A DNA stretch of 64,000 nt, from positions 6,266-70,265 of the IMG/VR virus record IMGVR_UViG_2974533118_000001. One strand, written 5' to 3'. The position numbers and the translations under genes were made by a program. The stretch comes from a virus. Its lineage: Duplodnaviria > Caudoviricetes. A model generated the notes under the pieces. That model was not told where the DNA came from. It was given only the letters and a program-made list of their open reading frames with translations, and searched no databases. Shown one piece after another: positions 35,646 through 62,051 of the stretch (its first letter is position 1; every line of letters starts with the position of its first letter).

Positions 35646-35678
35646 AAAAACAGGCACGCACCCCCATAGGTTGGAAAT
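35646..35678 (+). promoter_or_regulatory. Middle-class promoter, copy 1
   Basis: AAAAACAGGCACG-N13-TG-GAAA-TAT. Confidence 0.75.
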
Positions 35679-35710
35679 ATAAGCACCCGCCACAACGAAA
35701 GACCCAGACC

Positions 35711-36151
35711 ATGAAACTGACCCACCGCGACGCCAAGTTCGACACCCAACTATTGGCCGAGCTCCGCAACTTCACCATTGAAACCCGCAACGGCGCCGTG
35801 ATCAGCGTGAGCGAGGGCGCGGACGGCTCGCTACACCTCCACGAGGGAAGCCACCGCAACCTCCGCATTGTGCCCGTAGTGGCCAACAGCGTGCGCATAG
35901 ACATAGTGGACCCATTCCTCGAGTCAGCCGCCCCCATGACACCCATAGCCACCGAGGACGCCCTCTCACGCATCCCCAAAGGGGCCAAGGTCTACAGCGT
36001 CCGTACCAAAAGCCTTTGGGACTGGTGGGGCGCAAACGAACGGCTTGTCGCGAGCAACAACATTGGCTATACAGGCGAAACCTACACAAGCTTTACCGCA
36101 TTCTGGGCAGCGGAAGCACCCCTACTGCTGGCAGCCAACCCCGATGAATGA
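35711..36151 (+). CDS. Hypothetical protein
   Basis: GAAAG RBS; ATG 35711. Confidence 0.75.
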   Translation: MKLTHRDAKFDTQLLAELRNFTIETRNGAVISVSEGADGSLHLHEGSHRNLRIVPVVANSVRIDIVDPFLESAAPMTPIATEDALSRIPKGAKVYSVRTKSLWDWWGANERLVASNNIGYTGETYTSFTAFWAAEAPLLLAANPDE

Positions 36152-36539
36152 GAACCGCGACCGGCTGGCAGCCGACATAGCCACAGCCACCAGCCAATGG
36201 GTCACCCCGCTGGAACAAGGCGAAACCGAAACGCTGGCCATGGAACTTGACGCCATGAACTGGGAAAAACGCGAAATCATCGAAACCCAGGAACAAGCCG
36301 ACGCCGTGCGCGAGGGCACCGTGGTGATAGACAGCTACCGGCCCGACTTCAAAGGCGACGTATACCGTGCCAGCCTCACGCCCTACCGAGGAAGCCCCAT
36401 AACGTGGTGGCAAGCCGGCCCACAAACCTGTTTCAAGTCCGTGCAACTCCCGGCCCTTGTCTTGCTCCAAGGCACCGGCCCCACACTGGCCGAACTCAAG
36501 CAAGCAATGGGAATCATGACGAAAGGCAAAATCCAATGA
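36144..36539 (+). CDS. Hypothetical protein
   Basis: Coupled overlap. Confidence 0.7.
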   Translation: MNENRDRLAADIATATSQWVTPLEQGETETLAMELDAMNWEKREIIETQEQADAVREGTVVIDSYRPDFKGDVYRASLTPYRGSPITWWQAGPQTCFKSVQLPALVLLQGTGPTLAELKQAMGIMTKGKIQ

Positions 36540-36727
36540 CGCAATGGGCAGTACACACAGACGGCAGCCCCGCCCACGTATGGCCTCTAGCCGACACCAT
36601 GGAACACGACCTTGAGGGCCACGGCGAAAACTGCACATGCCAACCCGTCGTGGAAGAAATCCCCCGCGAGGACGGCACAACAGGCCACATGATCAGCCAC
36701 AACGCCAAGGACGGACGCCCCGAATGA
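36536..36727 (+). CDS. Hypothetical protein (His/Cys motif)
   Basis: HVWPLAD...H...CTCQP...HNAKDGR. Confidence 0.7.
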   Translation: MTQWAVHTDGSPAHVWPLADTMEHDLEGHGENCTCQPVVEEIPREDGTTGHMISHNAKDGRPE

Positions 36728-37227
36728 CCCCCGACATGACAGCCCTGGACGCAATCCGGGCACGCACCCGCTCATGGGCAGCCGGTAAGCTGCGCACCGC
36801 CAAACTGGTCACCAGCCCGTTCAATGGCCGGTTTGCTGCCCTCAACGGCGTCACCCCCGAAGGCATCGAACTGAACATGGTCATGGTCAACCACGACCCC
36901 GGGGGCACCAAAACCCCCGTGTTCGAGACGGAAAAAGCGGAAGCCATTGTGGCCGCGGCCCGGGACGCCAAAGCCCTCATGACCATTGTTGACACCCTCA
37001 GAACCCAGTTCAAGCACGAGGCCGAACAACTCCGCATCACCGCCGACAGGCTCACCCAAGACTCACTACACCCTGCAACGTCCACCACCAAGGCCGAACG
37101 CCGGGAAGCACGCGAGACCGCCGAACGCTACCGCAACTTTTCCAGTTGGGCCGACTCAGTGGCCTACAAAGTGGACAAGATCATTGACGACGTACTGAAC
37201 CCCAAGGAAGATGCCCCGAATGTCTAA
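36724..37227 (+). CDS. Hypothetical protein
   Basis: ATGA overlap. Confidence 0.7.
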   Translation: MTPDMTALDAIRARTRSWAAGKLRTAKLVTSPFNGRFAALNGVTPEGIELNMVMVNHDPGGTKTPVFETEKAEAIVAAARDAKALMTIVDTLRTQFKHEAEQLRITADRLTQDSLHPATSTTKAERREARETAERYRNFSSWADSVAYKVDKIIDDVLNPKEDAPNV

Positions 37228-37459
37228 GAACCTCAAGCCCCAGCCGGCCCCCATTCAGGTCAAACAGGCCACCCCGCGCATTGTCATTGACCCCGTGGAA
37301 CCATCCGTAATCCTGGACCTGCAACGCGACGGCGTGTTCCTCAAGTTCGACCCGGAAGCTGCCCGGAAACTTGGCATGGCGCTGGCGTCCGGCGCCGCAC
37401 GCGCCGAGGGCAAGACCAAGGGCCACGTAATCATGACGTTTGTGGAGGACGAAAAGTAA
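37220..37459 (+). CDS. Hypothetical protein
   Basis: AAGGAAG RBS. Confidence 0.7.
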   Translation: MSKNLKPQPAPIQVKQATPRIVIDPVEPSVILDLQRDGVFLKFDPEAARKLGMALASGAARAEGKTKGHVIMTFVEDEK

Positions 37460-38455
37460 ATGAGTTCACTCACTGACCCCAAAGGCATCAAAGACACCGT
37501 AAACGCGATCTTTGCCGGGGGAAGCACCCACCCGCTTGCTGACCTTGCCCGACTCATTGACGGCGCAATCAACGACGCCCGATTCCGCGGCCTTGGGGAC
37601 TTCGACATTGCCCGGTGGGTGGCCCACGTCATTGACCACCACGGCTACCAGATCAACCCAGACAGCGAACCCGCAAGCGCCCACGTTGACGTGCACGGCA
37701 CACCCCACGGCCAGTTCGTGATCAACCCACCCAAGCCGACATATGAGGGCGTTTCGGAGTTCCCCGCAAGCACCGAAACGCGCACCGCAGAGCAATTCCT
37801 CATGGACCAGGTCCTCAAGGATGCGCCCACCATGTCAGCGACCACCCCGGACCCCAAGCTAAGCGCCGAGGTGCTGGGCAGGATCGAACGCGACACCCGG
37901 CGCGCCAACCCGTGGGACAACTTCAAGCCTGAGTTCTTGCCGTTCCCCAAGCTGGACCTGTCAGGGATCCCCGCCATGCCCGTGGACGTAAAAGAGAGTT
38001 TGGAAGCCGCCGCCGAACTAATGCGCGAGAGCATGGAACGCGCGGCCAAGGCCGTGCGCAAGGGTGTGGACGACGCCCGGGCCGCGGAAGCACGCCGCAT
38101 CCTGGCCGAACAGCCCCACGAACACATTTACGGGCGCGGCTCTAACGGCCTCTGCCGTATCTGTGGCGCCGAGTCCAACAGTCGCCGCGCGAGGGCCAAA
38201 CGCCGCGCAATCCACAACGAACAGGCCAAAAAGGTTGCCCAATGGCCACAGCACGCCCTTGGGGAACGCGTGGAACAAGCCCAATCCGGGCGCTTGGGGC
38301 GCATCACCAAGACCGTCAACGCTGAGGGCTACGTCCATACTGTTTGGGACCAGGAACCCGGCAAGACAAACATTATTCACGTCTCCCACCTCAGCGCCCC
38401 CATGTCCAACCTCCACGAGGCGTTGAAAGCCAAGGGCGACGGCGGCGACGAATGA
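37460..38455 (+). CDS. Hypothetical protein
   Basis: 331 aa; HEH...CRICG motif; SH3-like C-terminus. Confidence 0.75.
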   Translation: MSSLTDPKGIKDTVNAIFAGGSTHPLADLARLIDGAINDARFRGLGDFDIARWVAHVIDHHGYQINPDSEPASAHVDVHGTPHGQFVINPPKPTYEGVSEFPASTETRTAEQFLMDQVLKDAPTMSATTPDPKLSAEVLGRIERDTRRANPWDNFKPEFLPFPKLDLSGIPAMPVDVKESLEAAAELMRESMERAAKAVRKGVDDARAAEARRILAEQPHEHIYGRGSNGLCRICGAESNSRRARAKRRAIHNEQAKKVAQWPQHALGERVEQAQSGRLGRITKTVNAEGYVHTVWDQEPGKTNIIHVSHLSAPMSNLHEALKAKGDGGDE

Positions 38456-38559
38456 TCACGCAAGAGGTTTGGGACCACATGGGCCGGGGGGCGTGGCTGG
38501 CCATTGCCCTGTTCGTGCTTTGGGTGGCGGTAAGCGTCTACTGGGATAGGCCGAAATGA
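38452..38559 (+). CDS. Small membrane protein
   Basis: One TM helix; ATGA overlaps. Confidence 0.6.
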   Translation: MITQEVWDHMGRGAWLAIALFVLWVAVSVYWDRPK

Positions 38560-38744
38560 GCGCCCCGCAACTCCTGAATCTTGCGTCCGCGCTGGCCTTG
38601 TGCGTTGCCACATGGCTTGCTTTCTTCGCTGCGTGGAACAGCAACCAACCTAGACCGGCTTGGGGGTCCAAACCGGCTGGCGTGGCCCTCTTGGTGGCTT
38701 GCGTGTTGGGGTTGGCTGCTTTGCTCACTGGGCTGTTCGTATGA
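38556..38744 (+). CDS. Membrane protein
   Basis: Two TM helices. Confidence 0.7.
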   Translation: MSAPQLLNLASALALCVATWLAFFAAWNSNQPRPAWGSKPAGVALLVACVLGLAALLTGLFV

Positions 38745-39103
38745 CCGACTACCAGCCCACCCTTTGGAATGAACCCACGCCCCCGGCAGCGCCCCCGCGA
38801 GCTCTGCCGGTCTCGTGGGACGGCATCCCCATGGAATGGCGGGAATGGCACGCAGAGAACCAAATCACGATATGCCCACCCATCCCACGCGAGCCGTGCC
38901 CACACTGCGGCTTTGACGACGCGCCGCGCTCAATGTGCCGGGGCGTCCGGGTGGGTTCCAGGATGCTGGGGCCACTCTTTGCGTTCCGCTGCCAAGCCTG
39001 TGGCGGGGACACCGTGCACGACCTCCAAGCCGGCGATACATGGATCCTTGAACTAGACGACTACGGGCCGGACGGTTCCACAGACGTTCGGATTATCGAC
39101 TAA
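38741..39103 (+). CDS. Zn-finger hypothetical protein
   Basis: CPHCG...FRCQACG...WILELDDYGPDGS. Confidence 0.75.
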   Translation: MTDYQPTLWNEPTPPAAPPRALPVSWDGIPMEWREWHAENQITICPPIPREPCPHCGFDDAPRSMCRGVRVGSRMLGPLFAFRCQACGGDTVHDLQAGDTWILELDDYGPDGSTDVRIID

Positions 39104-39133
39104 AACAGGCACGCAGCGCGAGACACTGAGAAT
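39101..39133 (+). promoter_or_regulatory. Middle-class promoter, copy 2 (leaderless)
   Basis: TAAAACAGGCACG-N13-TG-AGAA-T-ATG. Confidence 0.8.
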
Positions 39134-39307
39134 ATGACCACTCAACCAGAGCCCCGGCCCAAAGCTGTCGTGGAGAAAACCACCGTGCCCCGGCGTCACC
39201 GCGCTTGGTGCGAGGGATGCCAGGACGGGTGGAACGGCAGCAAGCGCACCGCCGACAAATGGGCCAAGGAACACAACGAGGAACACCATGTTGAGCCTCA
39301 CGCGTAA
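39134..39307 (+). CDS. 57-aa microprotein (absent from the ORF track)
   Basis: Leaderless ATG; WCEGC...HNEEHH is C2H2-like. Confidence 0.7.
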   Translation: MTTQPEPRPKAVVEKTTVPRRHRAWCEGCQDGWNGSKRTADKWAKEHNEEHHVEPHA

Positions 39308-39479
39308 GGAACGCGAGAACAACCTCGTTTGCTGCCACTGTGGGCGCCCGATTGTCCGCAACACCGGCCCCCGGCACCGATGGGCGCGCGCACTGCCCAA
39401 GATGGAATGGCTTCACAACGCCAAGGACTTTGACCCGTCCAAGCCCATTGATTGCTTCACCCCCGAACCGAAAGCCTGA
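39288..39479 (+). CDS. Hypothetical protein
   Basis: GAGGA RBS; CCHCG. Confidence 0.65.
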   Translation: MLSLTRKERENNLVCCHCGRPIVRNTGPRHRWARALPKMEWLHNAKDFDPSKPIDCFTPEPKA

Positions 39480-39481
39480 AC

Positions 39482-39613
39482 ATGGCCAAGCCCTGCCACC
39501 CCTGTTCCTGCCACCTCCACCCGCCATGCGGTGCTTGCGAGCATTGCACCCACTGGGACGTGGACGATTGCCCCAACGATTGCCAAGATTGCCCCGACCA
39601 CGAGGAAGACTGA
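39482..39613 (+). CDS. 43-aa Cys/His-rich microprotein (absent from the ORF track)
   Basis: MAKPCHPCSCHLHPPCGACEHCTHWDVDDCPNDCQDCPDHEED: 9 Cys, 6 His. Confidence 0.7.
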   Translation: MAKPCHPCSCHLHPPCGACEHCTHWDVDDCPNDCQDCPDHEED

Positions 39614-39615
39614 CC

Positions 39616-40134
39616 ATGCCTAAAATCGCCACAGCACGCCAACGCATCATGGAGTATCTGCGCCAACGCCGCAACCAGTCCCGCGACCTTGGGAACACCA
39701 TTCACGTCAGCTACACAGACCCCAAGGGCGAGCCGGCCGAACTGCTGATTTCCGACATTGAGGAAATCATGCAGACCACCACCGGGCTGCCCGATTGGAC
39801 GTACTTCTACGCGTTCCACGCCGCCTACGCAGCCTTACGCGCCCATGAGGCATGGACCATGGGGCGCGGGGAAGACCTGACCGGCAACGGCATCAAGTCC
39901 CACAAAATCAGTTGCGTGGGCTGCCCCGCCGGCTGGCACACCTACGCCTTGAACGCGGAAGACGCACGCGAGCTATTCACCGGCCACCAAGCCAACATTG
40001 TGGCCACCCACTTGCGTGACAGCTTCCAGAACCCAGACAAAGCCGAGGAACAGCGCCTGATCCTTGACCGGGTATGGCATGAAGGCTGGGACTCCCACGC
40101 GGACGCCAAGAGCCCTTACGGGGTGGCCGAATGA
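39616..40134 (+). CDS. Hypothetical protein
   Basis: GAGGA RBS; CVGC...H motif. Confidence 0.7.
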   Translation: MPKIATARQRIMEYLRQRRNQSRDLGNTIHVSYTDPKGEPAELLISDIEEIMQTTTGLPDWTYFYAFHAAYAALRAHEAWTMGRGEDLTGNGIKSHKISCVGCPAGWHTYALNAEDARELFTGHQANIVATHLRDSFQNPDKAEEQRLILDRVWHEGWDSHADAKSPYGVAE

Positions 40135-41501: not shown

Positions 41502-41663
41502 ATGGCCAAGCACCGCGTAACCCACCTAACCAAGTGCCACGAGTGCGCCCAACTCGTTGAGGAACCCTGCCGGGACGCATTCGATTACGCCCTATGCTCA
41601 CGCCACCGAGATTGCCACCCATGCCCACTTTTGGAGTGGAGGAAAAAACAGGCACGGCTCTGA
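41502..41663 (+). CDS. Cys-rich microprotein
   Basis: GAGG RBS; CHEC...C...CSRHRDCHPC. Confidence 0.65.
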   Translation: MAKHRVTHLTKCHECAQLVEEPCRDAFDYALCSRHRDCHPCPLLEWRKKQARL

Positions 41664-41676
41664 GTAAGTTGGGGAT
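41644..41676 (+). promoter_or_regulatory. Middle-class promoter, copy 3 (leaderless)
   Basis: AAAAACAGGCACG-N13-TG-GGGA-T-ATG. Confidence 0.8.
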
Positions 41677-42105
41677 ATGAGCTCCTTTCAGAAACCCCGA
41701 CAAACCCGCGCCGAACTGATCCAGCACGCCAGAACCCTTGGGGATCCCAACTGGTGCCTCAGCGTGCCGGCTGAGGCCAAGCAAGTTATCAACGCCCTTG
41801 CCGAACAAGTGGCAATTTCCATGCCACCCCCGCAAGCCGTAATCCCGGAAGACAAGCCCCAAGACCCCATTGTCACGCTCGCGAACAGCGCCAAAAGCTA
41901 TCTGGAATACCGCAAGGGCAAACTTGAAGACCACCTTGCCAACCTGGAACGCACCATTGCCGACTTGCGCCGCTACCCCGGCAGCGACGGCGTGAACCTC
42001 ATGACCCGGGCAGCCGAGGCAGCCAACGCCGCCACCCAACTGCAAGACGCCATGGAACACGCCGAACAATTCGCATACCTCGTGGGAGAACGCGCCCATG
42101 ACTAA
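41677..42105 (+). CDS. Hypothetical coiled-coil protein
   Basis: Leaderless ATG. Confidence 0.75.
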   Translation: MSSFQKPRQTRAELIQHARTLGDPNWCLSVPAEAKQVINALAEQVAISMPPPQAVIPEDKPQDPIVTLANSAKSYLEYRKGKLEDHLANLERTIADLRRYPGSDGVNLMTRAAEAANAATQLQDAMEHAEQFAYLVGERAHD

Positions 42106-43266: not shown

Positions 43267-43499
43267 AACAAGGAAAATATTGGTGCTTGGTACTCACAAT
43301 TACGGCGGGAGTCATGTTTGCAACCGAGATATGGGTGGCTGACGGGCGCTATGCGGCTATGGGCTGGCTGGCTGTGGGCGGTGCGATCATTGCCGGTCTG
43401 GTGGGCATCACCCAAGCCGTCAAAAGCGAGGCCAAAGAGCTCAAGAAACACCCCGCGTTGGGCTGGGAGGAAGAACAGGCACGCGAGGGGCGAGACTGA
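43263..43499 (+). CDS. Membrane protein
   Basis: GTGA overlap; two TM helices. Confidence 0.65.
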   Translation: MKQGKYWCLVLTITAGVMFATEIWVADGRYAAMGWLAVGGAIIAGLVGITQAVKSEAKELKKHPALGWEEEQAREGRD

Positions 43500-43503
43500 G
43501 AAT
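43471..43503 (+). promoter_or_regulatory. Middle-class promoter, copy 4 (leaderless)
   Basis: AAGAACAGGCACG-N13-TG-AGAA-T-ATG. Confidence 0.75.
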
Positions 43504-43701
43504 ATGAGCAACCAACACCCCGACCTGCCCGACACCGGAACCACGCCAATGATGGCTGACGCCATAGCCATGCAAGAGGTCATGCAAGCCATGACCGCTG
43601 CCGGTTTCACCCCCGACGAAGCCCTCAAGTACATGGTCTACCGCTCCATAGCCGTGGTGGAAATGCAGACCCCTTGCCAGAAGTGTGGGCACAAGCCATG
43701 A
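43504..43701 (+). CDS. Hypothetical protein
   Basis: Leaderless ATG. Confidence 0.7.
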   Translation: MSNQHPDLPDTGTTPMMADAIAMQEVMQAMTAAGFTPDEALKYMVYRSIAVVEMQTPCQKCGHKP

Positions 43702-44294: not shown

Positions 44295-45367
44295 CCAACT
44301 GCATTGACCTGATCGAACAGCACGCCCCCGACGCGCCCAAGGGATCGTTCTACACATGCCCCCACGGACGAAACTACCGGCTCAAGGGCAAGGGCTGGCG
44401 CCCAATCCGCAACCCGTGGACCAACCGCAAGGTAAAGCAACAGCAATGGGAAGCGATCAAGGCCGAGCTCTTGCGTATCTGTGAGCGCGCCGCCGCCAAC
44501 CACGACGCCAAACAGGCTGAGGAAGCCGACAAAAAGGCACGCGCGGACGAAAACCGCGCCCGGGCACGTCAGCACGCCAACAAAATCAGGTGGGGCACCG
44601 ACGCCGAGCCCGGCGACACCGTGACAGTGGAACCGCTGCGTGAGCCGGAAGGCTTCGAGGTCACCCGTGTGCTGGGACGCGTCAAGCACGACGCCAAAGC
44701 CGGGGAAGTTGTGGAACTCGACGTCGACAACCCAGTAAATGACGAACTGCCCCGCGAGCTTTGGGACGCACGACAGGAACCCCACGGGTGGGCCAAGGTA
44801 GAGAACAGCGAGGACTACAAGCCCCGGCGCTCCGATGCATACCTGAACGCATTGGACTTGCCGGATGCTTCCAGCCTGAAACGGGAGGACCACAAGGCGC
44901 GCATCCTGGATGCCTACTACGTGAACGTGGCAGCCGGCCGACGCCTTGACACCGCAAAGGGCTTTTTCGCTAACACCGTGGAGGAATACGCGAAAGTCAA
45001 CCGTCTTGGCTTTGCGGACGCTGTGAGCCTCTTGGAGGAAGCCCGGGAGGACGAACGGAAGCACAACGAGGCCACCGGGCGCATTGCCGTTTACAAAGAG
45101 GACGGCACCGCCAAGACCGCTGACGAAATCCGGGAGGAAGCCGCCAAAATCAACGGACGCGGCACCACCTTTGTGGACTTGGAAGGCAGCCCCAACCTGT
45201 TGACCGAAAAACCCAAGGCATCCGGTGGCGTCATTTCCGCCGAACACGACCACTTCAAGGGAAGCGTCAAGATTGAGGTTCACGGCGTCCGTGGCGACGC
45301 CGCCGAGGTCATGGAGCAAGCCGCGGCAAGCATCCGTGAGAACGGCGCCCGGGGCGTGTGGCTGTGA
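44291..45367 (+). CDS. Hypothetical protein
   Basis: 358 aa, coupled to both neighbours. Confidence 0.75.
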   Translation: MTNCIDLIEQHAPDAPKGSFYTCPHGRNYRLKGKGWRPIRNPWTNRKVKQQQWEAIKAELLRICERAAANHDAKQAEEADKKARADENRARARQHANKIRWGTDAEPGDTVTVEPLREPEGFEVTRVLGRVKHDAKAGEVVELDVDNPVNDELPRELWDARQEPHGWAKVENSEDYKPRRSDAYLNALDLPDASSLKREDHKARILDAYYVNVAAGRRLDTAKGFFANTVEEYAKVNRLGFADAVSLLEEAREDERKHNEATGRIAVYKEDGTAKTADEIREEAAKINGRGTTFVDLEGSPNLLTEKPKASGGVISAEHDHFKGSVKIEVHGVRGDAAEVMEQAAASIRENGARGVWL

Positions 45368-45756: not shown

Positions 45757-45807
45757 CGCTGTGTTAATGTGGTCTCACTCCTTCAGAGTGGCATCGGTTG
45801 ACCTGAG

Positions 45808-45836
45808 AAACCCCCGGCTAACCCCGGGGGTTTTTT
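45808..45836 (+). terminator. Intrinsic terminator
   Basis: AAACCCCCGG...CCGGGGGTTTTTT. Confidence 0.85.
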
Positions 45837-45858
45837 GGTGCCCGGGCGAGCCCTTAGC

Positions 45859-45891
45859 AAAAACAGGCACGCGACCGCGGACAATGAAAAT
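45859..45891 (+). promoter_or_regulatory. Middle-class promoter, copy 5 (leaderless)
   Basis: AAAAACAGGCACG-N13-TG-AAAA-T-ATG. Confidence 0.8.
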
Positions 45892-46692
45892 ATGAACCCC
45901 TTACGCAACACCATTGAGGAAGTCCGGGCGCTCATTGAAGCGAACGGGCACCACCTCCCGGCGCAACTGACCAGCGCCGAACTGTTCGCCGGGTACGGCG
46001 GCTTAGCCCAAGCAATCGAACGGGCATTCGGCGCCCACACCCTTTGGCTAAGCGAGTTCGACGCCGCCCCGTCCAAAATCCTTGCCCACCACTGGCCCGA
46101 CGTGATCAACCACGGCGACGTAACCAAGATCAATTGGGCACTCATGGGCCGGCCTAACATCATGGGTGGCGGATTCCCGTGTCAGGACGTAAGCCTTGCC
46201 GGTCTGCGCATGGGCTTGAACGCGGACACCCGCTCCGGTCTGTGGTTCCACTTCCTCAAGGGAATCGTTGCCCTACAACCGGAATTTGTCCTATTCGAGA
46301 ACGTCCGGGGCATCCTTTCCGCCAAGTCAGTCAGGGACGCCCCAAGCACCCCTGAAACGCTCGCAATTGATGCTGAACTACTCGAATTGACCACCCGTAG
46401 CGAAACCCTCCACGCAGAATTGGACCACCTCTATGACGCCGCTAGCCACGCTGAGTTCAACGCCGTTGAAGACCGAATTTCTGGCCTCCTGGAACAGCGA
46501 GAGAGGGCTATGGGAGACGAACCAGATGGACCTATTCAGCGAGCACTCGGAACCGTTCTCGGAGACTTGGCCGATGCAGGGTATGACGCGCAATGGTGTG
46601 GCCTACGCGCTGCCGACGTGGGCGCCCCCCATGGGCGTTTCCGCGTCTTCGGCCTTGGAATCCGGCGCGACCTCCTCAGCCCCGCAGCCTGA
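45892..46692 (+). CDS. C5 cytosine DNA methyltransferase, N-terminal subunit (motifs I-VIII)
   Basis: ELFAGYGG, GDVTKI, GFPCQD, ENV, HGRFRVF. Confidence 0.9.
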   Translation: MNPLRNTIEEVRALIEANGHHLPAQLTSAELFAGYGGLAQAIERAFGAHTLWLSEFDAAPSKILAHHWPDVINHGDVTKINWALMGRPNIMGGGFPCQDVSLAGLRMGLNADTRSGLWFHFLKGIVALQPEFVLFENVRGILSAKSVRDAPSTPETLAIDAELLELTTRSETLHAELDHLYDAASHAEFNAVEDRISGLLEQRERAMGDEPDGPIQRALGTVLGDLADAGYDAQWCGLRAADVGAPHGRFRVFGLGIRRDLLSPAA

Positions 46693-47934: not shown

Positions 47935-47966
47935 GAAAGCCCCCACCAAATCTGGCGGGGGCTTTC
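47935..47966 (+). terminator. Intrinsic terminator
   Basis: GAAAGCCCCCACC...GGCGGGGGCTTTC, nearly identical to the one at 22433. Confidence 0.8.
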
Positions 47967-47974: not shown

Positions 47975-48007
47975 AAAAACAGGCACGACGGCTGAAAGAC
48001 TGAACCT
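47975..48007 (+). promoter_or_regulatory. Middle-class promoter, copy 6 (leaderless)
   Basis: AAAAACAGGCACG-N13-TG-AACC-T-ATG. Confidence 0.8.
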
Positions 48008-49810
48008 ATGACCCTTTGTGATCCGTGCCAAGCCCTCTATGACGGGTGGCTTGAGTACAAAAAACCGGCCAAAGGATGGGTGACCCTCAACAGCCCGGAA
48101 CGCAGCGCCGAAACGCGCCGTTCCCAAATCCAGGACACCCGCAACCTGCAACGCCAACAACTAGACGGCATCCGTGAGACGTGCCGGCGCAAGCACCAAG
48201 AAAGCGAACCTATGACCAGTGAACTGACCGCCGAGGAATCCCAAGCCGTCGCTGAGGCGCTGGCAATTGCCAACGACGGCGTTATGCCTGCCCCGTCCCT
48301 CCACTACGAGGACAGCAACGTGAAGCTGTGGCACGGCGACTGTGTGGAAGTCCTCAAGACCTTGCCGGACAACAGCGTCGACGCCGTCGTCACAGACCCG
48401 CCCTACGGTATCCGGTTCATGGGCAAGGCATGGGACGGCGACGACATTGAGGAAATGACCCGCAAGCGCCGCGAGTCAGCCCCAATGCCGGACGGCGTGG
48501 GTGGCCCCAATGGTGGCTACCAGTCAGCAAGCACCGAGGCCGGACGGTACAACCAGACCCTCACAGCGAACCAAGCGTTTGGGGAATGGTGCCTTGAGTG
48601 GACGCGCGAGTGCTTCCGTGTCCTCAAGCCCGGTGGCCACATTCTCGCGTTCGGCGGTTCCCGCACGTGGCACCGGCTCGCGTCTGCCGTGGAAGATGCC
48701 GGGTTTGAAATCCGGGACTCAATCGCGTGGCTCTACGGATCCGGCTTCCCCAAGTCCATGGACATTTCCAAGGCCATTGACAAAATGCGCCACGAGTCAG
48801 CGGACAAGCTCAAGGTCACCTCGTGGCTGGCTGATCAGGCCGAGGCCAACAACATCACCCGCCGAATGCTGGACATTGCCATGGGTACCAGCGACATGGG
48901 CGGCTGGTGGCTGTCCCGCATTGAACACCGCTGCCAGATTCCCACCATGGAACAAATCCCCCGGGTGCTGGCTACCCTTGGCATTGAGGCTGAGGACGTG
49001 CCGGCCGAAATCCAGGAACTCATTTTTGAGCTCAACGGCGCCAAGGGAACCCCGGGCAAGGCATGGCTTGAGCGCGAGGTTGTGGGCACCCGGGAGACCG
49101 GCGACGCCTTGGGCTGGCTACAACAGTCCGGCAGCACCACCAAGACCGTGGACGTGACCACCGCAGCCAGTGACGCAGCAAAGCAATGGGAGGGCTGGGG
49201 CACGACGTTGAAGCCGTCCTTTGAACCCATGGTGGTGGGCCGTAAGCCCATGCGCCTGACCACTGCGGCCAACGTCCTCAAGCACGGCACCGGGGGCATG
49301 AACATTGCCGCCACAAGGGTGGGCGACGAACCCCGCACGAACAAGGGCGGCAGCGCGTCCAGTCTCCACGCCGTCAGCCGGGTGGAACAGGGCTACCGCG
49401 ACACCGTGACAGCGAGCGAGGGCGTGGAATCCATGGTCAACGGGCGGTGGCCCACCAATGTGCTGCTGGACGACTTCACCGCGGAACTGCTGGACGCCCA
49501 AGAGCGCAACGCCGACCAGTTCTTCCCCGTCTTCAAGTACGAGGCCAAAGCTCCCGCATCCGAACGCCCCAAGGTAGACGGCATAGCCCACCCCACCGTG
49601 AAGCCGCTGGACCTCATGCGCTGGTGCATCCGGCTTATCACCCCTCCCGGGGGCATCATCCTGGAACCCTTCGCCGGGTCCGGCACGACGGCTGAGGCAG
49701 CCGTAATGGAGGGCATGCAGTGCATAGCCATTGAGCGGGAAGCCGACTATCTGCCACTGATCCGGCAACGACTCGAAAAGCCCATTGAAGTGGCCTTGTT
49801 CCAAGTCTGA
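48008..49810 (+). CDS. N4C/N6A DNA methyltransferase, beta class (alternative start 48212)
   Basis: TDPPY, VLKPGG and HPTVKP motifs precede EPFAGSGTT. Confidence 0.9.
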   Translation: MTLCDPCQALYDGWLEYKKPAKGWVTLNSPERSAETRRSQIQDTRNLQRQQLDGIRETCRRKHQESEPMTSELTAEESQAVAEALAIANDGVMPAPSLHYEDSNVKLWHGDCVEVLKTLPDNSVDAVVTDPPYGIRFMGKAWDGDDIEEMTRKRRESAPMPDGVGGPNGGYQSASTEAGRYNQTLTANQAFGEWCLEWTRECFRVLKPGGHILAFGGSRTWHRLASAVEDAGFEIRDSIAWLYGSGFPKSMDISKAIDKMRHESADKLKVTSWLADQAEANNITRRMLDIAMGTSDMGGWWLSRIEHRCQIPTMEQIPRVLATLGIEAEDVPAEIQELIFELNGAKGTPGKAWLEREVVGTRETGDALGWLQQSGSTTKTVDVTTAASDAAKQWEGWGTTLKPSFEPMVVGRKPMRLTTAANVLKHGTGGMNIAATRVGDEPRTNKGGSASSLHAVSRVEQGYRDTVTASEGVESMVNGRWPTNVLLDDFTAELLDAQERNADQFFPVFKYEAKAPASERPKVDGIAHPTVKPLDLMRWCIRLITPPGGIILEPFAGSGTTAEAAVMEGMQCIAIEREADYLPLIRQRLEKPIEVALFQV

Positions 49811-49842
49811 GAAACAGGCACACCCCGCAATACGCTGAGAAT
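49810..49842 (+). promoter_or_regulatory. Middle-class promoter, copy 7
   Basis: AGAAACAGGCACA-N13-TG-AGAA-TAT. Confidence 0.7.
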
Positions 49843-49867
49843 ATAAGCCACAACGAAAGGGCCAACC

Positions 49868-52047: not shown

Positions 52048-52341
52048 ATGGAAGCCCAAACCGAGAACCTGGACCCCGCCAACGCACCGTTGGACACCAG
52101 CCCCGCACCGAACCCGGAAGTGGGGGACGTGGTGCTGTACCTGACCAAAGAGAACGGCATTGAGGTGCCGGCCATGGTCACCGGCAAGTTCGAGTACCGG
52201 GAAGCGGTCAGCCTGAAAATCTTCTACCCGCCGAACCTCCCGGAAGACCCCATCGACAAAGAACAGTTGCTAAGCGTCCCGGGCACCGTCACATATCTGC
52301 CCGGGATTGGTGAGCGGGGACGCTGGCGCCTTCGCGACTAA
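52048..52341 (+). CDS. Hypothetical protein
   Basis: PEVGDVVLY...PAMVT...SLKIFYP...RGRW pattern. Confidence 0.7.
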   Translation: MEAQTENLDPANAPLDTSPAPNPEVGDVVLYLTKENGIEVPAMVTGKFEYREAVSLKIFYPPNLPEDPIDKEQLLSVPGTVTYLPGIGERGRWRLRD

Positions 52342-52371
52342 AACAGGCACGCGAGTGGTTACGTTGGAAAT
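52339..52371 (+). promoter_or_regulatory. Middle-class promoter, copy 8 (leaderless)
   Basis: TAAAACAGGCACG-N13-TG-GAAA-T-ATG. Confidence 0.8.
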
Positions 52372-52746
52372 ATGACCACTGCTCTGCAAACACTCGCTGA
52401 CGTTGCCGCGATAATCGCCCTCAAGGCCCACACCTGGAACAACGAGGACGAACTACAAGAATCAATAGCTGAATCCCTCAAGGCCGCTGGGCTAGAGGTC
52501 ACCCGCGAGGTGGCCCTGTCCGGTGGCCTTGGGCGTATCGACCTCATGATCGGGGAACACCTTGGCGTTGAGGTCAAGGTAAAGGGCTCATGGCAGCAAC
52601 TCACCCGTCAGGTCATGCGCTACAGCCACGCCCCTGAAATCAAAGCCCTTTTGGTGGTGACCACCAAGCCCGGGCACGCCCAAAACGTCCCGCTACAGTC
52701 CAACGGCGTCCCGATCCTCACCCACCTGTTGCGGGGTGCGTTTTGA
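52372..52746 (+). CDS. PD-(D/E)XK nuclease-like protein
   Basis: EDELQ...REV...RIDL...EVK...QVMRY. Confidence 0.7.
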   Translation: MTTALQTLADVAAIIALKAHTWNNEDELQESIAESLKAAGLEVTREVALSGGLGRIDLMIGEHLGVEVKVKGSWQQLTRQVMRYSHAPEIKALLVVTTKPGHAQNVPLQSNGVPILTHLLRGAF

Positions 52747-54697: not shown

Positions 54698-55049
54698 CAC
54701 ATGGCCACGGGATGGGTCCGGCAACATACGCATGGTGCTGTATGTTGCCGGTCCCATGACCGGGCTACCGGAGTTCAACCGCCCCCAATTCCATACCGTC
54801 ACCGACGAATTACGGCGCCGAGGCTACTACGTGTTAAATCCGGCACGGCAGCCGTTAGGTTTGGAATATAACGACTATATGAGACGTGGACTGTACGACG
54901 TTTCCCGGGCTGACGGGCTGGCTTTGCTGCCCAACTGGGAAGAATCCAACGGCGCCCGTATCGAACACCGTTTAGCCCTGAAAATGGGCTTGGAATGCAG
55001 ACCCCATGACGAATGGGAAAACCTCTACGAGAAAGAGCCACAACTATGA
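54687..55049 (+). CDS. DUF4406 / nucleoside deoxyribosyltransferase-like protein
   Basis: YVAGPMTGLPEFN...LNPA...LPNWEESNGARIE. Confidence 0.8.
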   Translation: MPTDTWPRDGSGNIRMVLYVAGPMTGLPEFNRPQFHTVTDELRRRGYYVLNPARQPLGLEYNDYMRRGLYDVSRADGLALLPNWEESNGARIEHRLALKMGLECRPHDEWENLYEKEPQL

Positions 55050-56330: not shown

Positions 56331-56520
56331 CCACATTCAACGCATCCGGGAAGACCTCAACCGGGAACGGCTGAGACTCCTGGAAGACCTCAGCCGGGAA
56401 GCACGCACCCCCGCTTACTACCGGCCCCGCAAAGAACACCCCAGCGCCGGCCGACGCCGCGCCGAAATCCTCCGAACCGAAAACGCAGCATTCTACGCCG
56501 CAAGAAAGGCCACCAAATGA
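56323..56520 (+). CDS. Hypothetical protein
   Basis: Coupled overlaps. Confidence 0.65.
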   Translation: MSDHIQRIREDLNRERLRLLEDLSREARTPAYYRPRKEHPSAGRRRAEILRTENAAFYAARKATK

Positions 56521-58050: not shown

Positions 58051-58609
58051 GACAACAATTACGGTTATCGGGAATCTGACCACAGACCCCGAGCTTAGGT
58101 TCGTACCGTCAGGCAGCGCGGTGGCCAACTTCACCATTGCCAGCACGCCCCGGACGTTCGACAGGCAAAAAAACGAATGGGTTGATGCAGAGACCTTGTT
58201 TTTACGCTGCTCCATTTGGCGTGAGGCTGCGGAGAACGTGGCCGAGTCTCTGACCAAGGGCATGCGCGTGATCGTGTCCGGCCGGCTCAAGTCCAGGTCA
58301 TATGACACAAAGGAAGGCGACAAGCGCACGGTCATTGAGCTTGAGGTGGACGAAATCGGCCCCAGCTTGCGCTACGCCCAAGCCAAGGTGAACCGGACGC
58401 AGCGCAGCAACAATGGCGGCGGTGGGTTTGGTGGCGGTAATGGCGCGTCACAGGGCGGTCAGGGCGGCGGGGGCGGATATAGTAATCAAGGCGGTTTTGG
58501 TGGCGGTGCGAGTAGCGCGCCGGCCAACGCGGACGACCCGTGGGCGACTCCCGGCGTTAGCAATGCTGGCGGCTGGGGGAATGGCCCCGACTCCGAACCG
58601 CCCTTTTAG
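58040..58609 (+). CDS. ssb: Single-stranded DNA-binding protein
   Basis: [15 protein letters not shown]...[16 protein letters not shown]; Gly-rich tail ending EPPF. Confidence 0.97.
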
Positions 58610-58751
58610 CTTCCAGTTGGTCCGGTTAGGTGCGTTTAGTGTGTGAGCGGAATTAGTACGCCGTGGAACCACTCTAAAGATGATGTAGACGTTGCCAGCG
58701 ATCCGGTAGCCAACAGGTGAGGTGGAGGACGTAGGGCGTTACGTTGGAAGC

Positions 58752-58795
58752 CACAAGATAGCCCCGGTGCACGCTCGCGCCGGGGCTTTCTTGTG
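58752..58795. terminator. Intrinsic terminator
   Basis: CACAAGATAGCCCCGGTGC...GCGCCGGGGCTTTCTTGTG. Confidence 0.75.
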
Positions 58796-58815
58796 CCCTC
58801 TTGCATGAAGTGTGG

Positions 58816-58845
58816 TTGCATTCCCCTGTAGTGAGGTGCTACATT
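58816..58845 (+). promoter_or_regulatory. Early SigA-type promoter with palindrome
   Basis: TTGCAT-N18-TACATT containing TGTAG-N7-CTACA; near copy of the promoter at 23882-23911. Confidence 0.75.
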
Positions 58846-58889
58846 CTTTCTAACGCACCAACCGCCACAGCTACGCAAAGGAACCCGCC

Positions 58890-59615
58890 ATGACCGCCGA
58901 ACAGCCCCTTGACCTCCACACCTTCGCTAAAGGTGACACGTTCTACTACGGCACCAGCGAGGTGATTTATACGGCCACCAAGGTGACCAAGCGTTACATG
59001 CACGCTCTTGGCCCGACCGGGCGTGCCGTGCGTTTCGATCTTCGCCACGACCCCTTGACCCCCGCCGTTGCCACCGCAGACGAGTGGCCCACTGTGGCTG
59101 ATCTTGTGGAGTGCATGCAGAACGAGTTTCGCACCGAGCAAGGCGAGGACTACACCCCCAGCGTGGACGCCGTGGCCGAGTCAGCCGACGATTTGTTCCC
59201 GGAAGTACCGGACGACGACGCCGACGCCGCAGCGTTCCACAAGCGTGCTGAGGGCATCATGAACGCGGCTTTGGCAATCATGCGGGTTTGGGCTGCTGAA
59301 CAAACCCCGGACGCCCCCACGCCGCTGCTGCACCCCAAGCGCGAGGTGTTCAACGTGTCAGCGACTTTGGACGGCAAAGCGGTGGTGGAAACCATCACCG
59401 TGCAGGGCAACATCAAGCGTGCCCGGTCTGTGGCGGACATGCTCGCGTGCAAGTACGGGTTCGGGCCGCTGACTATCAACTTCCACACCGCATTGCTTGA
59501 GTTCCACCAAGGCAGCGGGGAAGCTGGCGTTGAGATTGAGGACATGGACGCCGACGACCCGTGGGAGTGGGGGCCACATGATGAAGAAATGACCGCTGAA
59601 ATGGCCGCTGAATAG
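58890..59615 (+). CDS. Acidic early hypothetical protein
   Basis: AAAGGA RBS; monocistronic between an early promoter and a terminator. Confidence 0.8.
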   Translation: MTAEQPLDLHTFAKGDTFYYGTSEVIYTATKVTKRYMHALGPTGRAVRFDLRHDPLTPAVATADEWPTVADLVECMQNEFRTEQGEDYTPSVDAVAESADDLFPEVPDDDADAAAFHKRAEGIMNAALAIMRVWAAEQTPDAPTPLLHPKREVFNVSATLDGKAVVETITVQGNIKRARSVADMLACKYGFGPLTINFHTALLEFHQGSGEAGVEIEDMDADDPWEWGPHDEEMTAEMAAE

Positions 59616-59631
59616 ATCAAGAGATACCGAG

Positions 59632-59658
59632 AAAGCCACCCTACGGGGTGGCTTTTTT
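59632..59658 (+). terminator. Intrinsic terminator
   Basis: AAAGCCACCC-TACG-GGGTGGCTTTTTT. Confidence 0.9.
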
Positions 59659-59669
59659 CGTGCCCGGAC

Positions 59670-59702
59670 AAAAACAAGCACGCGCCAAGAGAGACTGAGG
59701 TT
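59670..59702 (+). promoter_or_regulatory. Middle-class promoter, copy 9 (leaderless)
   Basis: AAAAACAAGCACG-N13-TG-AGGT-T-ATG. Confidence 0.75.
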
Positions 59703-59942
59703 ATGGACGCTTTTGAGTATCAGACCGTGAAGGTTCCCCGCGACGCCAAGGGGCGCACTAAAGCGCTGACGGCCTACGGGCAGCAAGGGTGGGAGGTCAC
59801 GCACACCAGTGACGCATGGCAAAAGACCGTGACCGTGACCATGCGCCGCATGGTGCCCGGTGGCGCGAGGCCCAAGCCGAAACAGCCCGGGCTTTTGGGT
59901 CTGATATTCCAAGCAATCGCGAACCGCAACACCGCCAAGTAA
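59703..59942 (+). CDS. Hypothetical protein (DUF4177-like)
   Basis: FEYQTV...YGQQGWEV pattern. Confidence 0.7.
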   Translation: MDAFEYQTVKVPRDAKGRTKALTAYGQQGWEVTHTSDAWQKTVTVTMRRMVPGGARPKPKQPGLLGLIFQAIANRNTAK

Positions 59943-59954
59943 AGGAACCCAGCT

Positions 59955-61070
59955 TTGAAACTGACTATTGATTCCAGCGCGCTCAACGAGGCTGTGGGCT
60001 TCGCTGCCCGGGCCGTGAACCCCCGCCACGCCCAGCCGGTCCTCACGGGTCTTGTGCTGGAAGCTGCCGGGGGCACGCTGTCCATTCGTGGCTTTGACCA
60101 GACCAAGGCCAATGCCGTGGAAATCGCCGCTGACATTGAGGAAGACGGCCTTGTGTTGCTGCCCGGGGCGGTGCTGGCCAACATGCTCAAGGCGCTGCCG
60201 ACTAACAAGCCGCTGGACCTGGAAGTGGCCGATAGGGCCACGCTCAAGGTGGGGCGCGCCAAGTTCTCTACCCCGGTCATGTCCATGGACAATTACCCGG
60301 TGTTGCCGGGGCTGCCGCAGCGCCTTGGTTACGTGGACAGTGACGTGTTCGCCAAGGCTGTGGGGCAGATTCAGCACGCAGCCGGCCGGAACTCTGACGT
60401 GGAGGTGCTGAACGGCATCAAGGTGGAGCTCCGCGGCGACCTGTTGCAGTTCATTGCCACTGACCGTTACCGGGTGGCCATGGCTGAAATTCCGATCCAC
60501 CGTTATGAGGGCACCCCGCATGAGGCTGATTTCCTTGTGCTCGCTGAGGTGCTGGTGAACGCTGCCCGGGGCGGTAGCGGCAACATGGACGTGCTGGGTT
60601 CGGAACAGCGGATTGGGTTTGTGTCAGCTACCAGGACGGCCACGGCCAACCTCATGGCGGGGCAGTATCCCCCGGTTCACAAGCTGTTCCCGGCTGCGCA
60701 CATGGTGGCCAACAGGGCGACCATTGACGTTGACGCGCTGCTGGGTGCTGTGACTCGTGCCGCCGTCGTCGTGGACGGCAAGAACCCCATCCGGCTGAAC
60801 TTCCGGCAAGGCGAGGTCATTGTGGACGCTGGCCGTGCTGACTCCAACGCTGGTGAGGAAGCCGTGGAGTGCTGGCACGACTTCGAGGGGCCAAAGGCGG
60901 TGGGATTCAACCCCACGTATCTGGCCGAGGGCTTGCGCTCACTGGCCACCCCGCAAGCCGTGTTTGGGTTCCACGCTGAGACCGGCGTCAAGCCCATTAG
61001 CCTGACCGATTCCGGCGACATGGTGACCAACAAGCAATTGCTCATGCCCATGCGACTGGAAAGCATCTAG
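59955..61070 (+). CDS. dnaN: DNA polymerase III beta sliding clamp
   Basis: 371 aa; QPVLTGL...ATDRYR...YPPV..LFP...GFNPTYL...LLMPMR. Confidence 0.95.
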   Translation: MKLTIDSSALNEAVGFAARAVNPRHAQPVLTGLVLEAAGGTLSIRGFDQTKANAVEIAADIEEDGLVLLPGAVLANMLKALPTNKPLDLEVADRATLKVGRAKFSTPVMSMDNYPVLPGLPQRLGYVDSDVFAKAVGQIQHAAGRNSDVEVLNGIKVELRGDLLQFIATDRYRVAMAEIPIHRYEGTPHEADFLVLAEVLVNAARGGSGNMDVLGSEQRIGFVSATRTATANLMAGQYPPVHKLFPAAHMVANRATIDVDALLGAVTRAAVVVDGKNPIRLNFRQGEVIVDAGRADSNAGEEAVECWHDFEGPKAVGFNPTYLAEGLRSLATPQAVFGFHAETGVKPISLTDSGDMVTNKQLLMPMRLESI

Positions 61071-61118
61071 CGGCGTGTTAATCTGATTTCCTTGCTGCGT
61101 CGGGTTGCAGGGGTCACG

Positions 61119-61154
61119 GGAAAGCCCGGGGATTATGTCCCCGGGCTTTCCTTT
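61119..61154 (+). terminator. Intrinsic terminator
   Basis: GGAAAGCCCGGGGA-TTATG-TCCCCGGGCTTTCC-TTT. Confidence 0.8.
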
Positions 61155-61158
61155 GCCC

Positions 61159-61191
61159 AAAAACAGGCACGCTCGCGCATAGCGTGGGAAT
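61159..61191 (+). promoter_or_regulatory. Middle-class promoter, copy 10
   Basis: AAAAACAGGCACG-N13-TG-GGAA-T. Confidence 0.7.
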
Positions 61192-61221
61192 TGACGGCAC
61201 AACCGACGAATTGAGGATCCA

Positions 61222-61668
61222 TTGATTCCCGTAGACCAGACCATATTTGCGGCCACCGGCAGAAACGACGGCAACGCCGCTGACGGAACCCCCGGCAACT
61301 GCTTTCAGGCGTGCATTGCTTCGCTGCTGGAACTACCCCTTGAGCAAGTGCCCCACTTCATCACCCATGAGGACTGGTGGGAGGTCACCAAGGCTTTCGT
61401 GTCCGCTCACAAGCCGGGTTGGACGATTGAGCATTACGACGCCAGTTTCCCGGCCTACCAAGACCCGGAACACCCGGAAGCGCCCACCCATGTGATTGGG
61501 TCCGGCAAGTCGCCGCGCGGGGACTTCTACCACGCCGCAATTGTGGACGCTGTGACGGGCGAGCTCGCGCACGACCCGCACCCGTCCAGGGCCGGGTTTT
61601 TGGGTGAAATGGATAGCATGTTTGCCCTTGTGGCAAAGCCTACGGTTGAACAGGTGGCAGCAAATTGA
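61222..61668 (+). CDS. Putative C39-like cysteine peptidase
   Basis: GAGGA RBS; GNCFQACIASLL...YHAAIV...AHDP gives a possible Cys-His-Asp triad. Confidence 0.5.
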   Translation: MIPVDQTIFAATGRNDGNAADGTPGNCFQACIASLLELPLEQVPHFITHEDWWEVTKAFVSAHKPGWTIEHYDASFPAYQDPEHPEAPTHVIGSGKSPRGDFYHAAIVDAVTGELAHDPHPSRAGFLGEMDSMFALVAKPTVEQVAAN

Positions 61669-62012
61669 GCTACGACATTTCAATGGAAAAGCCCCCCGCT
61701 GAGGGCTGCTGCACATGCCACGGTGGAAGCTACGAGGAAGTGGGGAACATGACGTCCAACGTGGCCCCGCTGTGGCGCCACGCTGCCCCGCAGACTGACG
61801 GGCTGGCCGGGATCGACGGCAAGACAGGTGGCGAGTTCGCCGCGTATCTGCGCACCGGCCTGGAACACATGAAAACCCACCGGGCCGAGTATGAGCCGCT
61901 GGTGCGCGGCGACGGGACGTGGGGGAACTACACCAACGCCGTGGACTTCATGACCGAGGTGGTGGAAGCCGCCGAGGCGAACCCAGCGGCACGGTTCCGC
62001 GTGTGGCGCTGA
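61665..62012 (+). CDS. Conserved phage hypothetical protein
   Basis: NMTSNVAPLW...WGNY pattern. Confidence 0.75.
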   Translation: MSYDISMEKPPAEGCCTCHGGSYEEVGNMTSNVAPLWRHAAPQTDGLAGIDGKTGGEFAAYLRTGLEHMKTHRAEYEPLVRGDGTWGNYTNAVDFMTEVVEAAEANPAARFRVWR

Positions 62013-62018
62013 GTCCCG

Positions 62019-62051
62019 AAAAACAAGCACGCAGCATGTCACGCTGGAAAT
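62019..62051 (+). promoter_or_regulatory. Middle-class promoter, copy 11
   Basis: AAAAACAAGCACG-N13-TG-GAAA-T. Confidence 0.7.

Follow-up and report, generated by a model that had tools for sequence, protein, structure and literature searches.

What is the role of a short asymmetric sequence that recurs on a single strand of a phage genome, at an almost invariable distance from a bacterial -10 element and, in most cases, from the start codon of a gene, and by which protein would it be read? The question is raised by a stretch of 64,000 nucleotides (nt; hereafter the window, to which coordinates refer unless the genome is named), which spans bases 6266–70265 of the 70,265-base-pair (bp) virus record IMGVR_UViG_2974533118_000001 and is that of Arthrobacter phage PrincessTrina (genus Klausavirus, cluster AR), a circularly permuted myovirus of Arthrobacter sp. 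ATCC 21022; the Arthrobacter phages EdgarPoe, Tophat and Conboy are 97–99% identical to it. The 36-bp unit built around this sequence (the box) is taken here, with a probability of roughly 0.6, to represent a phage-specific Klausavirus promoter class, in which a sigma-A-type -10 element is kept, a phage box replaces the -35 element and specificity is conferred by a phage-encoded factor. That the units form a promoter class with predicted leaderless starts is well supported by the sequence and the genome comparisons presented below; their “middle” timing and dependence on a phage activator are plausible. Promoters are not mentioned in the paper describing cluster AR.

The predicted box promoters and their conservation

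The box is the 13-bp asymmetric sequence AAAAACAGGCACG, located at -33 to -21 relative to the predicted transcription start (+1) and followed by N9, an A at -11, N3, a T at -7 and N6 before +1. A preliminary description of this DNA had listed 11 copies with invariant spacing, and the box is indeed present at all 11 start coordinates with 0–2 mismatches, an A standing at box start +22 and a T at box start +26 in 11/11 window copies. An ATG at box start +33, likewise described earlier, is seen in seven of the 11 (39134, 41677, 43504, 45892, 48008, 52372 and 59703), and these seven, as well as the ATG of a further copy just outside the window (promoter A below), open reading frames. With up to two mismatches allowed, the window contains 12 matches, compared with 2.4 ± 1.6 in shuffled sequences, none of the 100 shuffles reaching 12; the twelfth match, at 44529, lacks the remaining, downstream part of the pattern and was therefore rejected as a chance one. 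Counted over PrincessTrina, there are 12 copies on the + strand and none on the - strand, as follows:

Genome 6220, 46 nt before the window start, + strand: box promoter A, predicted leaderless; precedes a gene annotated as encoding an immunity protein in relatives
35646–35679, + strand: box promoter B (45.6 bits); box 35646–35658, -10 35667–35672, predicted +1 35679; 32-nt leader with a GAAAG Shine-Dalgarno; gene ATG 35711
39101–39136, + strand: box promoter C, predicted leaderless, +1 being the A of ATG 39134
41644–41679, + strand: box promoter D, predicted leaderless, ATG 41677
43471–43506, + strand: box promoter E, predicted leaderless, ATG 43504
45859–45894, + strand: box promoter F, predicted leaderless, ATG 45892 of a DNA methyltransferase gene
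47975–48010, + strand: box promoter G, predicted leaderless, ATG 48008 of a DNA methyltransferase gene
49810–49843, + strand: box promoter H; 25-nt leader with GAAAGGG between the predicted +1 (49843) and gene ATG 49868
52339–52374, + strand: box promoter I, predicted leaderless, ATG 52372 of a Cas4-like nuclease gene, followed by a helicase gene
59670–59705, + strand: box promoter J, predicted leaderless, ATG 59703, ahead of a small gene and the sliding clamp gene
61159–61192, + strand: box promoter K; 30-nt leader with GAGGA between the predicted +1 (61192) and gene TTG 61222
62019–62052, + strand: box promoter L, predicted +1 62052; 33-nt leader; gene ATG 62085

Boxes A, C, E, H and I overlap or abut the 3' end of the preceding gene (nt 1–3 of box C are the TAA stop of that gene, and box E lies within the 3' end of a gene whose stop is at 43497–43499), and terminator-like hairpins, with approximate limits, are found directly upstream of F, G, J and K:

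45805–45840, + strand: terminator-like hairpin with a T-run, upstream of F (-29.6 kcal/mol)
47935–47966, + strand: terminator-like hairpin, upstream of G (-34.3 kcal/mol)
59631–59656, + strand: terminator-like hairpin with a T-run, upstream of J (-22.1 kcal/mol)
61119–61150, + strand: terminator-like hairpin, upstream of K (-41.8 kcal/mol)

The four leadered promoters (B, H, K and L) have leaders of 25–33 nt, in which GAAAG or GAGGA stands 5–10 nt before the start codon.

For comparison, five other Klausavirus species (Colucci, KBurrousTX, ArV1, Lymara and DrYang) were used together with a 16.5-kb IMG/VR metagenomic contig, only about 3.2 kb of which is alignable with PrincessTrina (66–84% identity). 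Sites occupy 12 syntenic positions in these relatives, the total coming to 75 sites. Each of the five species has 13–14 box matches on the + strand (two mismatches or fewer), 11–12 of them with the full geometry, and none on the opposite strand; the metagenomic relative has seven, all on one strand, six of which show the geometry. Those box-like matches in the genomes of the relatives that are not accompanied by A-11 and T-7 are chance ones. A weight matrix trained exclusively on the other genomes recovers exactly the 12 PrincessTrina sites listed above at 30–46 bits, with shuffled genomes giving at most 8 bits and the next match, at about 25 bits, being the following:

54835–54868, + strand: possible degenerate 13th site (TAAATCCGGCACG) with the same geometry, inside a nucleoside deoxyribosyltransferase gene

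This site scores 24–25 bits and is present in 6/6 Klausavirus genomes, its conservation being confounded with coding constraint.

A footprint of 73 sites (12 syntenic groups, seven genomes), expressed as identity between ortholog pairs, gives 0.72–1.00 for the box, 0.97 for A-11 and 1.00 for T-7, with the spacer and flanks at 0.4–0.6. The A at -11 is present in 72/73 sites and the T at -7 in 73/73, positions -5/-4 are purines in all 73, -1 is a pyrimidine in 69 and +1 an A in 64, and the distance from the box to A-11 is identical in 72 of the 75 sites, being off by a single base in the other three. TTG is absent from -36 to -30 of the box promoters, and positions -20 to -13 carry little information. 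An ATG begins exactly at +1, that is, at the predicted start, in 48/75 sites and at +2 in two more, and the annotation of EdgarPoe, Colucci and KBurrousTX places gene starts at the +1 ATGs, apart from a few cases in which a longer or shorter reading frame was chosen; the ATG of promoter C is the annotated start in all three genomes, and that of F in Colucci and KBurrousTX, the EdgarPoe annotation using a TTG 57 nt upstream.

Two details of the pattern as originally drawn had to be revised. The “TG” it contained is no constraint, TT, TA or TC occupying the same place in the relatives, where only T-7 is invariant, and the T before the ATG is better described as a pyrimidine (T in 52 and C in 17 of 73 sites). 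As the G of this “TG” is not conserved, the reading of the unit as an extended -10 promoter (TG-n-GAATAT, with a start after the ATG) was removed; the hexamer it would use lacks a second-position A or a sixth-position T in many sites, whereas A-11/T-7 of the hexamer upstream hold.

Outside the lineage, the composite motif was searched for in 185,579 species genomes, where it had no match in Micrococcaceae and 84 single matches in unrelated taxa, none occurring twice per stretch, against about 70 expected by chance (our own estimate). A set of 301 Actinomycetota genomes gave 24 matches and 27 for the reversed control, i.e., no enrichment, and in metagenomes at least 120 stretches were matched, all being chance singles among the matches listed. 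Neither the related myovirus Abba nor three other Arthrobacter phages carrying the late box described below (Bumble, Altadena and Vibaki) have the box, and a helicase-based search returned 21 loci at 32–48% identity, none with it. As judged from these searches, the box is restricted to Klausavirus and one metagenomic relative.

Two of the sites have peculiarities of their own. At promoter B, the box lies within a hairpin (GGGGGTGTGTGC ... GCACGCACCCCC, 35634–35669) that is preserved, by compensating changes or G-U pairs, in Colucci, KBurrousTX, Lymara, ArV1 and DrYang, and which could be a terminator of the upstream operon overlapping the promoter. Promoter A serves an immunity-protein-like gene (genome 6253–6579, window 1–314) that is situated among the head genes and has its own box promoter in Klausavirus; since its Abba counterpart (5434–5739) overlaps the preceding gene and has no promoter, promoter A looks like a lineage-specific gain that would uncouple this gene from late expression.

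The -10 element and competing readings of the box

The footprint over seven genomes, the annotated starts and the terminators lying directly upstream all agree with a promoter-like class, as had been proposed. The conserved positions (A-11/T-7, a G/purine-rich discriminator, Y-1 and R+1) are those of a primary-sigma open complex, which argues strongly for promoters, and the leadered promoters, which have a Shine-Dalgarno of their own further down, also show the purine run at -6 to -3, so that this run would be a promoter feature and not a ribosome-binding site. With an ATG at +1, the resulting mRNA would be leaderless, if the start sites are as predicted. Such an arrangement is familiar from Mycobacterium tuberculosis, where promoters show a TANNNT -10 about 7–12 bp upstream of the start site, a purine at +1 and a pyrimidine at -1 while lacking a -35 motif, and 26% of genes having a primary start site are leaderless (PMC3898074).

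The box promoters form a class distinct from two others, early and late, both of which were verified in the same genome. Early promoters are of the sigma-A type, with a clear TTGnnn-N18-TAnnnT. The late class, CCGTCCC(A/C)CA-N19-nAnnnT-N6-+1, occurs seven times per genome before virion genes, four times with an ATG at +1, and is kept in all relatives:

27554–27583, + strand: sigma-A-type promoter TTGTAA-N18-TATAGT, preceding the box-free operon (genes 41–55); conserved in six genomes
58816–58845, + strand: sigma-A-type early promoter TTGCAT-N18-TACATT, accompanied by a palindrome; precedes gene 58890–59615
23882–23911, - strand: sigma-A-type early promoter, leftward, in the divergent region
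24156–24185, - strand: sigma-A-type early promoter, likewise in the divergent region, ahead of the leftward helix-turn-helix (HTH) gene 23904–24122
24193–24236, + strand: late-class promoter; the others start at window 377, 2339, 6311, 8610 and 17405 and at genome 2772

The -10 and its distance to +1 are common to the early, box and late classes, which points to a single sigma region 2 and, hence, to the primary sigma of the host, the upstream boxes being class-specific additions. In the form CC(G/T)TCCC(A/C)CA, the late box is also found in Abba, Bumble, Altadena and Vibaki (4–9 forward copies each, with zero for the reversed control); the non-structural genes of Abba lie behind sigma-A-like promoters with a different palindrome.

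On the promoter reading, then, host RNA polymerase with a primary-type sigma would recognize a weak -10 (nAnnnT, with A-11/T-7 invariant) and start at the A six nt after the T, which in two thirds of the sites is the A of the gene's own ATG, yielding a leaderless mRNA. The box AAAAACAGGCACG, standing in strict register where no sigma-A -35 hexamer is present, would most likely be read by a Klausavirus-encoded specificity factor, be it an activator or a substitute for sigma region 4.

Could the box instead be a site of repression? Were the -10 elements to fire alone, as those of many actinobacterial promoters do, the units would be -35-less sigma-A promoters, early by default, and the box over -33 to -21 might be the operator of a phage repressor or shut-off protein that keeps polymerase away, as a form of temporal negative control. 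It overlaps the polymerase footprint, and the stoperators of L5-type phages are likewise 13-bp asymmetric sites in one orientation. Additionally, the -10 is the dominant promoter determinant in M. tuberculosis, which shows no -35 motif (PMC3898074). An operator, however, needs no single-base register, whereas the distance between the box and A-11 is the same in 72/75 sites; a TGn extension is lacking from the -10, which is weak (T-12 in 38%); those promoters of this genome that are autonomous have a clear TTGnnn -35; and no integrase is annotated in these phages, the description of cluster AR mentioning no lysogeny functions. We consequently consider this reading unlikely. The same register would also suit an alternative sigma, either of the host or a phage one too divergent for Pfam, that reads the box as its -35-type element together with nAnnnT: strict spacing resembles that of promoters of extracytoplasmic function (ECF) sigma factors, AAC, a hallmark of ECF -35 elements, is present in the box, SPO1 and T4 encode divergent sigma-like proteins, and several early proteins of 140–240 amino acids (aa) here have no detectable family. 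Yet the early, box and late classes have A-11/T-7, the G/purine-rich discriminator and the 6-nt distance to +1 in common, the -10 is not CGT-like, no Sigma70_r2, r4 or r4_2 domain exceeds the threshold, and the composite motif stays at control level in the 301 Actinomycetota genomes and is absent from Micrococcaceae in the species scan, all of which makes such a sigma quite unlikely.

Highly improbable, in turn, is a motif acting at the level of RNA or translation (a processing site, a ribosome-loading or re-initiation signal on a polycistronic RNA, or a structured element), even if it does stand immediately 5' of start codons and, at sites A, C, E, H and I, overlaps the 3' end of the preceding gene, so that a read-through RNA would include it. 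The motif region shows no folding signal (z from -1.4 to +1.6), no Rfam match and no tRNA, and no complement of the box is found nearby; A-11, T-7, Y-1 and R+1 are positions of DNA melting and initiation, the four members that have no adjacent start codon keep all the other features, and the purines at -6 to -3 are too near the ATG for a Shine-Dalgarno, which in the leadered genes is a GAAAG 7–10 nt before the start codon. Two further candidates were rejected on inspection. For a sigma-54 promoter (-24/-12), which has TGGCACG at -24 and, 4 nt further on, TTGC at -12, the box does end in GGCACG, but no conserved TTGC follows in the next 13 nt and the GG is at -26/-25; actinobacteria are not known to have RpoN. 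For a loading site of the lambda Q type between -35 and -10, no conserved -10-like pause element is present in the first transcribed bases.

Some observations concern the early region and the leaders more than the box. Promoter 27554 has a -10 that does not vary among six genomes. Between it and genes 41–55 come about 85 nt of conserved sequence, predicted to be transcribed and closed by a strong terminator (27554–27673 with the promoter); this could be a small RNA or an attenuator/antitermination leader and has no Rfam match. A 5'-leader motif, CCGCCACAAC-GAAAG(G/A), precedes start codons of early, box-class and other genes, and may be a common translation-initiation region pairing with the extreme 3' end of 16S rRNA:

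35690–35710, 49846–49867, 27730–27773 and 58850–58889, and 23850–23880 on the - strand: CCGCCACAAC-GAAAG(G/A) leader motif

Lastly, about nine ATCGCAA-type repeats with a period of 11–12 bp are found at 33670–33760, just after a truncated replication-initiator-like gene (33076–33594).

Candidate factors and the proposed cascade

Which protein might read the box? The lack of a detectable sigma, WhiB, MotA or AsiA domain, together with the confinement of the box to one lineage, favours a phage-encoded factor. Searches in six frames of the genome gave no match for Sigma70_r2 and r4, only an 11-bit HTH match for r4_2 (a very divergent sigma being possible) and nothing over threshold for WhiB (Pfam), and neither PF09158 (MotCF) nor PF09010 (AsiA) had a match at E ≤ 1 in the whole genome, the MotA N-terminal family not having been searched. 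The unit encoding the factor should itself not need the box, which leaves the leftward genes, gene 58890 and genes 41–55. Of the genes with early promoters of the palindrome type, the two longer ones (23289–23843 and 58890–59615) have acidic products. DNA-binding candidates kept in all six species are gp37 (HTH), gp44 (HTH), gp48 (Arg-rich) and gp49 (Zn-ribbon), of which gp37 is probably the regulator of the palindromic early operators. The preliminary description had named three genes as possible activators, as listed below:

29643–29897, + strand: gp44, 84 aa, basic, C-terminal HTH; candidate box-binding factor
32428–32694, + strand: gp49, 88 aa, basic, zinc-ribbon-like; second candidate
62601–62744, + strand: gp108, 47-aa HTH protein

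Both gp44 and gp49 are conserved in 6/6 Klausavirus species and belong to the box-free operon headed by a sigma-A promoter; both stay possible box factors, neither being linked specifically to the box. The family matches of gp44 (HTH_23 and phrog_686) are weak. It occurs only in box-bearing Klausavirus genomes, as do most genes of the genus, and is absent from Abba; its homologues outside Klausavirus are confined to two metagenomic contigs, whose lengths of 0.9 and 1.8 kb do not allow a test of box presence. Profile comparison of gp44 with gp108 indicates similarity at the HTH level only (probability 33%). As for gp108 itself, its proposed role as box activator was made less likely by comparison: homologues are encoded in four Arthrobacter phage lineages (Abba, Bumble, Altadena and Vibaki) that have 4–9 copies of the late box and none of the box. 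By this co-occurrence it is better assigned to the late class and is likelier a late-box factor than a box factor, the late box thereby being, as far as genome comparison can tell, a cross-lineage late promoter with a candidate regulator. Among the small proteins that PrincessTrina and the distant contig have in common, gp108 is also the best conserved, at 78%. Next to it, 62464–62604 is an unannotated conserved 46-aa open reading frame with CPRC...CPC (zinc-ribbon-like), the end of which overlaps the beginning of the gp108 gene by GTGA; over 30 residues it is matched at 70% identity in the distant metagenomic contig, and the region is intergenic in the EdgarPoe annotation. Within the early operon, gp53 (34280–34996, 238 aa) has an invariant Cys/His cluster (C174, H198, H205, H209, C217 and C222) in its C-terminal third, after long helices, which from sequence is a possible zinc-binding domain.

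Several points weigh against a phage-specific promoter class read by a phage factor. Start-site use, timing and factor dependence are all predicted from sequence alone, and no candidate protein is tied to the box. Pfam and PHROGs searches with 18 early-unit proteins yielded weak HTH or Zn-ribbon hints, most of these proteins being phage-private families; a PDB sequence search with four proteins returned nothing, and a protein atlas search with gp53 and gp54 nothing usable. The model of gp44 has a predicted local distance difference test score (pLDDT) of 71, its best Foldseek match in the PDB being a generic long helix plus HTH at E 0.45, and the AlphaFold model of gp53 (pLDDT 62, predicted template modelling score 0.25) is too poor for a structure search. 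A T at -12 is present in just 28/73 sites (38%), and the weak -10 this indicates fits an activator model without proving one. Since in actinobacteria a -10 alone can suffice (PMC3898074), a negative or modulatory role of the box would be just as conceivable. The host-side check covered a phylum-wide Actinomycetota sample. Finally, no earlier description of the box promoter was found in the literature, although the ArV1 paper (J Virol 2017) was not covered and a prior description there is possible.

If the promoter reading is nonetheless followed through, the factor's gene would lie in one of the early, box-free units driven by sigma-A (genes 41–55, the leftward genes or gene 58890), and the box promoters would then head 12 compact units comprising the methyltransferases, the nuclease/helicase, the clamp and many small genes, the last of which encodes the likely regulator of the late class. 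The predicted order would accordingly run from sigma-A units to box units to late units, and the position of gp108 behind box promoter L fits such an ordered cascade. A bolder and decidedly tentative version would have the phage take over the actinobacterial sigma-A polymerase in a manner resembling sigma appropriation, through proteins unrelated to MotA/AsiA: a small early protein, with gp44 as the leading candidate, might read the box in place of sigma region 4 and turn on 12–13 mostly leaderless units, and the 47-aa HTH protein of the last unit, with its overlapping Zn-ribbon microprotein, might turn on the late box common to several Arthrobacter phage genera, completing a three-tier cascade on one host sigma.

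Knowledge of how the host polymerase is reprogrammed by phages of Actinobacteria is scant, and the analysis supplies a 36-bp unit with base-level predictions, a short candidate list, and early and late classes on the same -10 for comparison. Gene starts in the cluster AR annotations are corrected or supported as well, as eight genes per genome start at +1, and the units would give compact, orthogonal, leaderless expression parts for Arthrobacter.

Comparison with known promoter systems

How, then, do the box promoters relate to systems already described? With the leaderless sigma-A promoters of actinobacteria they share A-11/T-7, the lack of a -35 consensus and a purine at +1 preceded by a pyrimidine at -1, as well as, in most sites, a start codon at the predicted +1; the host promoters, however, have no conserved upstream box, whereas here an invariant 13-mer stands in strict register in one phage lineage. 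The late class of PrincessTrina, Abba (Ayohtrevirus), Vibaki (Vibakivirus), Bumble and Altadena is similar in its -10, its distance to +1, the frequent ATG at +1 and the use of a phage box for the -35, but its box differs in sequence, lies at -41 to -32 and heads virion genes, and it is spread over several lineages, in company with the 47-aa HTH protein. The L5-type stoperators of cluster A mycobacteriophages are also 13-bp asymmetric sites present in many copies, in short intergenic spaces and in one orientation with respect to transcription; they serve a lysogenic repressor, however, and keep no register with a -10 or start codon, whereas the register of the box is exact and no integrase is annotated.

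The functionally closest known system, by analogy, is the T4 middle promoter. The likeness to the MotA box drawn in the preliminary description holds at the level of function, the sequences being unrelated, as was also stated there: in both cases a host sigma-type -10 is kept, the -35 is replaced by an asymmetric phage box at a fixed short distance, and many copies head genes of DNA metabolism beside separate host-type early and late classes. The MotA box is (a/t)(a/t)(a/t)TGCTTtA, 9–10 bp long, at -35 to -26 (centred at -30) and 12 ± 1 bp from the -10, and T4 middle promoters depend on early-encoded factors (PMC2988021). Here, in contrast, the box is AAAAACAGGCACG, 13 bp at -33 to -21 and 8 bp from the -10 hexamer; the -10 is weak, whereas T4 needs an excellent one; no homologue of the MotA C-terminal domain or of AsiA is found, the host is actinobacterial and most transcripts are predicted to be leaderless. 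Its sequence, the spacing of 8 bp instead of 12 ± 1 bp and the absence of the corresponding proteins thus place the box class outside the MotA family.

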